The position numbers and the translations under genes were made by a program. The notes below the pieces were generated by a model. It was not told the origin of the DNA. It searched no databases and was given only the letters and a program-made list of their open reading frames with translations. Shown here piece after piece: positions 23,351 through 26,297 of a stretch of 64,000 bases of DNA. The stretch is from positions 96,001 through 160,000 of the forward strand of contig CAWANJ010000001.1 of assembly GCA_963783385.1 (NCBI GenBank), given 5' to 3'. Every line of letters starts with the position of its first letter. The first letter of the stretch is position 1. This DNA is from an uncultured Gemmatimonadales bacterium. Lineage in GTDB: Bacteria > Gemmatimonadota > Gemmatimonadetes > Palauibacterales > Palauibacteraceae.

Positions 23351-23956
23351 ATGCAGCGATCCCCTGATCCCCGGGCTCTCACGCCCGCACCCCTCCGCGC
23401 AGCCCTCCCGGCCGCGGTCGCGGCGGCCCTCGTCGTCGCCGCGGCGTGCGGAGGAGGGAGCGGAAGCTCCGAGGGCGGCTCCGCCAGGGCCGCGGACTCG
23501 GCCTTCGGCGACTGCTCGGCGGCCTCGCACTACGACAGCACGGCCATGCAGCGGCAGGCGGATGGCCTGCAGATCCAGGACTTCGCGGCGGGCAGCGGGC
23601 CCGCGGCCGTCACGGGCGACACGGTGGAGGTCCACTACACGGGCTGCCTCACGGACGGTAAGAAGTTCGACAGCAGCTACGACCGGCAGGAACCGTTCGA
23701 GTTCGTCCTCGGCACGGGAAGCGTCATTCCGGGATGGGACGAGGGCATCCAGGGCATGCGCCCGGGAGCCAAGCGGCGGCTGGTGATCCCGCCCGACCTG
23801 GCCTACGGGCCCCGGGGCGCCGGCGCGGTCATCCCGCCCAACGCGACCCTCATCTTCGACGTCCAGCTGGTGTCCGTGAACGGCGCCACCGGACAGGCGG
23901 CGGACTCCGCCTCCGCTCCGGGCACGTCGAGCGGAGACACGGCGGCGGGCTCCTGA
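23351..23956 (+). CDS. FKBP-type peptidyl-prolyl isomerase, lipoprotein
   Basis: Lipobox AAAC; [41 protein letters not shown]. Confidence 0.93.
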
Positions 23957-24020
23957 GAGAGGCGCCGCTCCGTGGCGCCGCTCCGCGGGGCGTGCGCCTC
24001 GGATGGGGCGCCGCTCCCGT

Positions 24021-24416
24021 TCAGCGGATCATGACGTAGGACTGGGACACCGGGCTCAGGACCCGGAGTCGGATCTGGTCCCCGGGCCGGGGGAACAGCT
24101 CCTGTGAGACGTACTGCCCCGCGCCGCCCGTGATCAGGTTGGCGATGAGCCGGATGCCCCCGCTCCCGATGATCAGGGACTGGGGCACCACGTAGCTGGC
24201 GCTGTCCTGGACTGCCAGGACTCCCAGCGAGTGGGTCAGCGTCTCGTGGGCCACGTACACGTGTACGGCCGATACGCCCTGATTGTAGACCCACACGCTG
24301 ACCGGGTCCGGCGCCCCCCTGGACTGTTTGGACAGGGTGGCGCACGCCCCCGAGGCCAGCGCCAGCACCACGAGCCCGCCCAGCCACCGCCGGGCGCGGA
24401 CCGCCGAGGGCCTCAC
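24021..24416 (-). CDS. Hypothetical small lipoprotein
   Basis: Signal with lipobox-like ASGAC; GTG start overlaps the OsmC stop (GTGA); paralogue of 24933..25376. Confidence 0.7.
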   Translation of the reverse strand: MRPSAVRARRWLGGLVVLALASGACATLSKQSRGAPDPVSVWVYNQGVSAVHVYVAHETLTHSLGVLAVQDSASYVVPQSLIIGSGGIRLIANLITGGAGQYVSQELFPRPGDQIRLRVLSPVSQSYVMIR

Positions 24417-24895
24417 GACCCATCTCCGGGGCCGCTCGCTTCATCCTCGATGTCGGCCGTCCAGGACACGACCACCGCGCCGCGCAGGCTCTGCGCCGTC
24501 GGGCACCTGGACTGGTGCCGATCCAGCGCACGCTCGACCCGCTCCCGCGTCCCGGCCGGGATTCGCAAGCGGTAGTGGATGCGGATCTCCGTGAGCACGG
24601 GCACGCCGTCTCGCACCTCGTTCACGCCCTCGACCTCCGCGGTGATCGCGTCGGGATCGAGCCGGACCTCGCGCACCTCCAGTGCGCCGTTGAGGGTTCC
24701 CAGCATTCACCCGCCCGCGGTGGCGACCAGGAAGTCCACGGGGAGGGGGAGGTCCTCCGCGTCGATTCCGTAGTGCTCCTTGATCGGGCCGTGCACGCCC
24801 ATGTCGAATTCGTGCCCCGTCGCCAGCCGAGCGCGGCGATGCACTCCCCGCACCTTCCGGACGGTGCACCGCGACACGTAGAAGGGGTCGGTCAT
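24413..24895 (-). CDS. OsmC/Ohr-like protein, probable selenoprotein (in-frame UGA at 24707-24709)
   Basis: ORFs 24707..24901 and 24413..24706 are in frame: PVDFLVATAGG-UGA-MLGTL...EIRIHY...ALDRHQSRCPTAQSL. The UGA aligns with the first OsmC Cys and a hairpin follows it. Start 24895 or 24901. Confidence 0.82.
24664..24700 (-). promoter_or_regulatory. Putative bacterial SECIS element
   Basis: After UGA: upper stem GCGCAC/GUGCGC with loop UGGAG at +26..+30; lower stem CCUC/GAGG and GGA/UCC with bulges. Confidence 0.65.
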
Positions 24896-24932
24896 CCTCA
24901 TCTCCCGGTTGGAATCCTGGCCGGCCCGCCCG

Positions 24933-25376
24933 TCACCGGACGCTGATCACGGACTGGCTGAGCGCGTTGTTGATCGTCCATTCGATCCGGTCTCCGGCCG
25001 ACACGAACACCGGCTCCGAGATGTACCCCTGGACGGACCCGATCGGGTCGGCGATGAGCCGCACGCTCTGATCCGATGCGAGGATCGAGCGGGGGATCAC
25101 GTACGTGGCCGTGTCCATGCTGCTCAGCTGACCCAGGGACAGGTTCTGTCCGGCGCCCATCACGTAGACGTGCACGGTGTTCCAGTTGTAGTTGCGCACG
25201 AACAGGGTCACGGGCGCGTCCCGCATGGACGTGTCGCCGGCCGCGCCCTTCCCTCCCATGCTCGCGCACCCTGCCACGACCAGCCCCGTGAGGAGCAGCA
25301 GGCCGAAACGAAGGGAGAGCCTTCGGGCCAGGCGGCGGCTACGGGCGACCGACGAGGCGAAGCGTGAGGTACCCAT
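24933..25376 (-). CDS. Hypothetical small lipoprotein
   Basis: GGAGG RBS, lipobox VAGC, PVTLFVRN...VHVYV...VRLIAD...AGDRIEW, similar to 24021..24416. Confidence 0.72.
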   Translation of the reverse strand: MGTSRFASSVARSRRLARRLSLRFGLLLLTGLVVAGCASMGGKGAAGDTSMRDAPVTLFVRNYNWNTVHVYVMGAGQNLSLGQLSSMDTATYVIPRSILASDQSVRLIADPIGSVQGYISEPVFVSAGDRIEWTINNALSQSVISVR

Positions 25377-25427
25377 GGCTTCCTCCGGCTGGGTTGGGAG
25401 GCGGCGGTGCACCGACTCCCCAGCAGG

Positions 25428-26297
25428 TCAACTTCCGTGCCCGCCGGCGCGTCCGCGTTCGGCGGATTCCAGCAGATCGAGGACCGCGTCCGGGGCGTCG
25501 ACGTTGAGCCAGTGTCCCCCCTCGACCCTGTGCAGGTGGACCCGGCCGGTGACCGCCCCGGCGGCCTCGATGCGCTCGCACGCCTCTTCCGACAGGACCG
25601 GAGACCGTGTGGCCTTCACGAAGTGCAGGTCCATCCCGGGCGGCGGCTCCTCCACGACGGCCCACAGGTCCACGTCGAAGAAATCCGCGAGGAGGGCCTC
25701 CATCCCGTCCAGGTCGAGACGCCACCGCCATCCCTCCCCGGTACGCGCGAGATTGGTGGACATCCAGCGCGCGACCGGCTTCGGGAAGCCGTGCGCGCCC
25801 AGCGCCCTCTCGGCCTCCTCTCGCGAGCCGAACGGGCCGCTCTCGGTTCTGAGCGCCTCGAGCATGCGCACGGCGCCGCCCTCGGGCTCCCGGGCGGCCG
25901 GGGTCGAGTCGATGACCCACACCGTATCCAGTCCCTTCGCCCCCGATGCATACGCCAGGGCCACCTTGCCGCCGAAGGAATGACCCAGGATGCCCGACGG
26001 GGCCCGGCCGGTGGACCGGGCGAGCCGGGCCACGTCATCCGCGCACGCCTGAATGGTATGGGGGGGCGGGAACCCCGTCGAGTCCCCGTGCAGTCGGAGG
26101 TCGACGAGGACGGCTCCCCGGCCGCCATCGGCGTCCACCCAACGGCGGGCGACCGACCTCCAGTTCCGGCCCGCTCCGAAGATGCCGTGGAGGAAATAGG
26201 TCCACCGTTCGGTACCCGGGGCTCCTGCGGCCCGCGATCCGGAGGTCGCCTCCCCTCCGGCCTCCACGAGCTCGTGGGCGAGGACCGGACCGCTCAC
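25428..26297 (-). CDS. Alpha/beta hydrolase (YbfF/ABHD11-like esterase)
   Basis: FLHGIFG.G.NW, DLRLHGDS, GHSFGGKVA, GGHWLNVDAP. Confidence 0.88.
   Translation of the reverse strand: MSGPVLAHELVEAGGEATSGSRAAGAPGTERWTYFLHGIFGAGRNWRSVARRWVDADGGRGAVLVDLRLHGDSTGFPPPHTIQACADDVARLARSTGRAPSGILGHSFGGKVALAYASGAKGLDTVWVIDSTPAAREPEGGAVRMLEALRTESGPFGSREEAERALGAHGFPKPVARWMSTNLARTGEGWRWRLDLDGMEALLADFFDVDLWAVVEEPPPGMDLHFVKATRSPVLSEEACERIEAAGAVTGRVHLHRVEGGHWLNVDAPDAVLDLLESAERGRAGGHGS

Follow-up and report, generated by a model that had tools for sequence, protein, structure and literature searches.

The locus described here lies on the minus strand of a 64,000-nucleotide stretch of Gemmatimonadota DNA (the window). 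The ORF listing contains two short open reading frames at this position, which share the same frame and abut with no gap between them. The upstream frame (24707-24901) has 64 codons and is terminated by the TGA at 24707-24709, and the downstream frame (24413-24706) has 97 codons and starts with an ATG. The minus-strand letters across the junction read GCG GGC GGG TGA ATG CTG GGA ACC, as given in the first-pass annotation, which had proposed that the two frames are halves of one OsmC-like protein of about 160 residues, with the internal UGA specifying selenocysteine (Sec). Translation of 24413-24901 with TGA read as U gives a product of 162 residues that includes the motifs GG-U-MLGT and HQSRCPTAQSL and ends at a second TGA (24413-24415). 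Residue numbers in this account are counted from the ATG at 24901. The second ATG (24895) is the likelier start, because it is preceded, at a distance of 6 nt, by the sequence GGGAG and coincides with the first residue of the homologues; the predicted product would then have 160 residues.

The predicted selenoprotein gene has a small gene on either side (24021-24416 and 24933-25412, both on the minus strand); the two are paralogues whose products, of 131 and 159 aa, have lipoprotein-like N-termini and are approximately 37% identical to each other (tblastn on the relative L053). In the downstream one of the pair, the GTG start overlaps the TGA stop of the gene under study (GTGA). This arrangement recurs solely in close relatives, at about 10 of 189 loci. 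The individual genes that flank it in the window were found again in only 3-18 of the 189 other loci, all of them from close relatives, and this query revealed no conserved partner gene or operon. Part of the region 23900-25500 of the window is contained in 20 sequencing runs; two of these are metatranscriptomes, in which the share covered is small (0.20 and 0.08).

The read-through product matches the Pfam OsmC family (PF02566) with an E value of 3.5e-13 and a score of 50.2 bits, where the cut-off is 27.5. This match extends across the TGA, from residue 51 to residue 147, and aligns positions 5-99 of the 100 in the profile, which bears out the joining of the two frames into a single OsmC-like sequence. 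An AlphaFold2 model made with 34 aligned sequences has a pLDDT of 94.2 and a pTM of 0.85. When this fold was compared with the PDB using Foldseek, 63 matches were obtained at E <= 0.001, with structures of the OsmC, Ohr and YhfA types on top (probability 1.00); the matches include 1ml8, 2onf_A (TM 0.76 by query and 0.87 by target) and both Ohr and OsmC chains. A family profile search of structures returned OsmC from Thermus thermophilus (1ukk) as its sole match (E 3.3e-4).

The peroxidatic Cys of OsmC and Ohr enzymes has catalytic Arg and Glu partners. In the alignment with 1ukk, the TGA column (residue 65, 24707-24709) coincides with the first, peroxidatic, active-site Cys, and the second, resolving, Cys is matched by the CPT motif. 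The Cys of this motif is Cys133, which is encoded by a TGC codon at 24503-24505 and is invariant in the alignment of longer homologues. Predicted Sec65 and Cys133 are therefore placed on both Cys columns of 1ukk, in agreement with the two-Cys layout of OsmC and Ohr peroxidases (one Cys in the long helix, the other in a CP motif) that the first-pass annotation had cited. Residues R22 and D56 are also invariant, and D56 lies, in the sequence alignment, on the P-E-E-L stretch of 1ukk. The scores against the established subfamily models are below cut-off, both for OsmC (TIGR03562, 15.9 against 85.8) and for Ohr (TIGR03561, 13.8 against 88.85).

The best 120 database hits comprise 28 full-length sequences (152-174 aa), one partial sequence (123 aa) and 91 second halves (89-102 aa). 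At the column of the putative Sec residue, the 29 longer homologues have Cys in 26 cases, Trp in two and Gly in one. At the DNA level this codon is TGA in 187 of 190 loci and TGC in the remaining three, so that both kinds of homologue anticipated for a Sec position, those with Cys and those with UGA, are represented. The 190 loci consist of 30 from a 401-genome sample of the phylum, 80 from species-representative genomes and 80 from metagenomes. The codon is TGA at all 110 loci that make up the first two sets; the metagenome loci, which were found with a Cys-form query, have TGA in 77 cases and TGC in three. The phylum-sample and species-representative sets overlap in origin, and 146 distinct 54-nt stretches 3' of the TGA are represented. 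Most of the record titles of these loci refer to Gemmatimonadota, and a few refer to Acidobacteriota, Eisenbacteria, Gammaproteobacteria or simply an "uncultured bacterium". A relative that is 97% identical (L053) likewise has TGA at this column, and both halves of the gene are conserved and open.

Bacterial SECIS elements are stem-loops located just 3' of the UGA, at a distance that falls within a consensus window, and carry a G near the start of a small apical loop. A hairpin of this type is found at 24671-24687 (minus strand), where a 6-bp stem (GCGCAC/GUGCGC) encloses the loop UGGAG, whose second nucleotide is G. The stem begins 19 nt after the UGA and the loop 26 nt past its A, so the element is located as originally described. 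Among the 146 distinct sequences, standard pairs are present in 99.8% of the 876 cells of the upper stem, and when the 3' partners were slid along as a control, pairing fell to 6-65% (maximum 65.4%). Changes on both sides of a pair were counted in 61 cells, compared with 16.4 +/- 2.9 in shuffles, and none of 500 shuffles gave a value as high. Compensatory changes are observed at three of the six pairs, namely 23-39 (GC 117, GU 16, CG 13), 26-36 (CG 138, UA 7, GU 1) and 27-35 (AU 91, GC 40, GU 14, unpaired 1; n = 146 for each). Exchanges between Ala and Val, in both directions, on one arm are offset by synonymous changes on the opposite arm, and a change of Gly to Ala (GGC to GCC) on one arm is accompanied by CGC to CGG on the other. 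The loop conforms to UGGAR in 137 of the 146 sequences, and the Leu codon within it is CTG in 142, whereas CTG accounts for just 67 and 41 of the 146 at two Leu codons close by.

Some of the stem pairing is a consequence of the protein sequence and of codon bias, because both arms fall within conserved codons and the gene is rich in G+C. The significance of the hairpin depends on how it is assessed: the comparison across loci supports it, but the 73 nt after the UGA, when folded alone, do not stand out from shuffled sequences (z = -0.94; 37 of 200 shuffles fold as well or better). The bulged lower stem that had also been proposed is borne out in part. The minimum free energy fold suggests a possible extended element at 24667-24695 (minus strand), comprising a lower stem of 4 bp and a bulge of 4 nt. 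This lower helix is weakly supported, with 73.5% of its cells paired; for example, pair 18-40 is CG in 71, GC in 22 and unpaired in 50 of the 146 sequences. A scan of 24350-24950 against Rfam at E <= 1 matched no family. The TGC forms provide a control that is small (n = 3): all three use CTC at the loop Leu codon, and one of them (L133) breaks two of the stem pairs while another (L135) retains all six. Two TGA forms from Gemmatimonadaceae and Longimicrobiales records (L087:2690-2743 and L093:2690-2743) have the loop UCGCC rather than UGGAG, and in one of them a stem pair is replaced by a C-U mismatch. It may be that these two loci use a variant SECIS.

The genome from which the window derives (3.54 Mb in nine contigs, 92% complete) encodes the components required for Sec incorporation, and the presence of selA, selB, selC and selD, which had been suggested as a check, was observed in full once one base of selB had been corrected. 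The tRNA-Sec was detected with 76 bits and is called by ARAGORN as SeC with the anticodon tca, and selA was detected with 534.8 bits. The selD gene (362.7 bits) is located outside the window on contig 9 (735480-736403; L018). The full-length selD match contains one in-frame TGA, and SelD is probably also a selenoprotein, judging from this codon. The selB gene, also outside the window on contig 9 (approximately 419445-421299; L010:1225-3391), is matched in two frames (252.9 and 65.4 bits), whereas in relatives a single uninterrupted match is found in 26 of the 28 that have a match. The break is caused by one extra base at L010:2164/2165, which is absent from approximately 99.7% identical contigs in four runs, one from each of four studies, and its removal leaves the selB frame open for 721 codons. 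The frame break is thus probably an assembly error. As one of these runs (X1) possibly represents the source sample, no more than three of the four that correct selB are independent.

The distribution of the gene across the phylum is consistent with dependence on this machinery. At E <= 1e-10 the gene was found in 113 genomes of the 401-genome Gemmatimonadota sample, with an in-frame TGA in all 150 of the matches listed, and selA was found in 320 (317 above the curated cut-off). All 113 carriers of the gene possess selA, and the gene was found in none of the 81 genomes without selA; since related genomes are not independent, these figures serve as a consistency check and not as a statistic. 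The totals for the sample include two unpublished genomes (G057 and G157) that are selA-positive and in which the gene was not found, and the 113 carriers are independent of both. As selA is present in 320 of the 401 sampled genomes, Sec use seems to be the rule in the Gemmatimonadota.

The Cys or TGA column in homologues, the co-varying hairpin and the Sec machinery all support the original claim that the UGA encodes Sec. We consider it very likely, with a probability of about 0.94, that 24413-24901 (minus strand) is one gene, which would encode a Sec-containing protein of the thiol peroxidase type with the OsmC/Ohr fold in Gemmatimonadota, with Sec predicted at the UGA on the basis of comparative sequence analysis. 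It is highly unlikely that decoding of the UGA is instead selenium-free, with a near-cognate or suppressor tRNA, or a changed genetic code, supplying Trp, Cys or Gly and the hairpin serving as a read-through stimulator only. Such a reading might draw on the three database homologues that have Trp or Gly at the Sec column (P0002, P0008 and P0009), but these nest among the TGA forms in the phylogenetic tree, and the cluster of P0008 contains first halves of 62 aa. On these grounds, the Trp and Gly residues most likely represent TGA codons translated by the gene caller under table 25 or 4, a predicted artefact that would conceal further selenoproteins. Moreover, the gene's own stop codon is also TGA, the occurrence of Cys in homologues is the signature of a Sec position, and the gene tracks selA.

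A further alternative is that the two frames are expressed as separate polypeptides of 64 and 97 residues through stop-start coupling at TGA-ATG, and that these assemble into one fold. This is the only other explanation that needs serious consideration, as ATG follows the TGA in most loci and gene callers start the second half there, although it too is highly unlikely. The Met residue is conserved to the same degree in the Cys forms (C-M-L-G-T), and is therefore a residue of the protein and not a start signal. In addition, the TGA is followed by CTG or CTA in some forms (e.g. L033, L035, L038, L058, L060 and L211), and by CTG, CTC or CTA in 11 of the 12 loci of a second paralogue that is described below. 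Stop-start coupling also fits poorly with the co-variation of the hairpin, with the presence of selA in all 113 of the sampled genomes in which the gene was found and with the location of the break exactly at the catalytic Cys column. The least probable explanation, a pseudogene or a sequencing error that converted TGC or TGT to TGA, derives some credence from the fact that the assembly contains at least one single-base error, in selB, but is excluded by the conservation of TGA at the same column in genomes and metagenomes, including the 97% identical relative, and by the open and conserved state of both halves.

If the UGA is decoded as Sec, SelB carrying Sec-tRNA(Sec) would bind the stem-loop at 24671-24687, and the ribosome would then insert Sec at codon 65 rather than terminate. 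By analogy with OsmC and Ohr, we infer a peroxidase cycle in which the selenolate of Sec65 would attack the hydroperoxide to form a selenenic acid, which Cys133 would resolve to a selenenylsulfide. The enzyme would presumably be recycled by a dithiol reductant, for example a lipoylated protein or thioredoxin, as in the case of OsmC and Ohr. Among the 189 other loci there is no conserved neighbour that points to a reductant partner.

Other genomes of the phylum encode a second OsmC-like paralogue (L213-L224), which is 34-45% identical to the first and has TGA at the same column, within the motif GG-U-L-T-G-T. Most representatives of this paralogue have a similar hairpin, and in many genomes of the phylum it is co-resident with the first; in the window's own genome it was not found at E <= 1e-10. 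Its representatives score 19-29 bits against the NCBIfam model NF041052 or do not match it, and are thus under the cut-off of that model. In a tree of 194 rows, rooted on this Sec-bearing paralogue, the 27 Cys forms nest in four groups among the Sec forms. The AU test was run on a subset of 71 rows, composed of every fourth Sec row (38 of 152), the 27 Cys forms and six of the 12 paralogue sequences, with the three Trp or Gly rows excluded. A single Cys clade, a group that was defined after the first tree had been seen, was not rejected on this subset (p-AU 0.064), and repeated replacement of Sec by Cys is therefore not established.

These data lead us to suggest, tentatively and at somewhat less than even odds, that the proteins constitute a distinct OsmC subfamily, with the signature FGVHGPI ... 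GG-U-[ML]-L-G-T ... CPT, in which Sec would be both ancestral and prevailing (Sec and Cys forms occur at 187:3 among the loci) and which would comprise two Sec-bearing paralogous lineages, given a root on the paralogue. A subfamily of this nature would reverse the usual pattern, in which widespread Cys families give rise to Sec forms only as rare offshoots (PMC1088965). It would also mark the Gemmatimonadota as a phylum whose lineages mostly keep the Sec machinery, as judged by the selA count given above.

The expectation that standard pipelines would split or miss this gene is confirmed by public gene calls, in which it is divided into the second halves that dominate the best 120 database hits and, in a related cluster, the 62-aa first halves. 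Some of the second halves are named "OsmC family protein [Gemmatimonadota bacterium]", and the first halves are annotated as "hypothetical protein". Most public records therefore present the gene in halves, or give merely the second half, which would be catalytically dead, in a phylum that is common in soil, sediment and sponges. As a consequence of this division, both the selenoproteome and the peroxide defences of the Gemmatimonadota are likely to be under-counted. A family dominated by Sec forms, in which the SECIS is simple and co-varies strongly, would be well suited to a comparison of Sec with Cys in a peroxidase of the Ohr/OsmC type, and might also serve as a model for bacterial SECIS elements outside the Proteobacteria and Firmicutes.

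The first-pass annotation was correct in stating that OsmC-like selenoproteins had been reported before. Zhang, Fomenko and Gladyshev predicted such a family in 2005 from Sargasso Sea sequences, and their report describes three sequences that are assigned to COG1765, possess a UxxT motif and are outnumbered by their Cys forms (PMC1088965). The family is also listed in reviews (PMC9312934 and PMC13188914), where the accessions MBR72571.1 and MCS5647933.1 are given; AACY01145085 is a further accession of the published family. In the literature on OsmC selenoproteins or selenocysteine and on Gemmatimonad selenoproteins, neither the present clade nor the selenoproteins of Gemmatimonadota are described in titles, in the beginnings of abstracts or in the passages retrieved, and figures or supplements may contain such sequences. 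The kind of protein has been known since 2005 and the clade is a common Gemmatimonadota branch outside NF041052; the find is solid but unsurprising, and it opens no long-standing question.

According to the 2005 description, the Sargasso Sea family resembles the proteins described here in having the OsmC fold (PF02566), an in-frame UGA, a SECIS of the bacterial type with a G in its small apical loop and Cys homologues. It is set apart, by that published description, by its UxxT motif, whereas the present proteins have U-x-x-G-T (U-M-L-G-T), in which the Thr is located at +4 instead of +3. A further difference from the family as described in 2005 is that Sec forms predominate among the present loci (187 compared with three). 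The NCBIfam model NF041052 ("OsmC-related (seleno)protein") is the best NCBIfam match to the window's protein and aligns over nearly its full length, yet the score of 24.6 bits is well under the cut-off of 95, which places the clade outside the model that the NCBI pipeline uses to name OsmC selenoproteins. The likeness to conventional OsmC and Ohr proteins, such as OsmC of Thermus thermophilus (1ukk) and Ohr of Chromobacterium violaceum (6ebg), resides in the common fold and in the occupancy of both active-site columns. In contrast to these enzymes, the present clade has predicted Sec in place of the first Cys, scores far under the cut-offs of TIGR03562 and TIGR03561, has Asp56 (P-V-D) at the position of the second Glu in the P-E-E-L stretch of 1ukk and possesses a conserved N-terminal FGVHGPI stretch.
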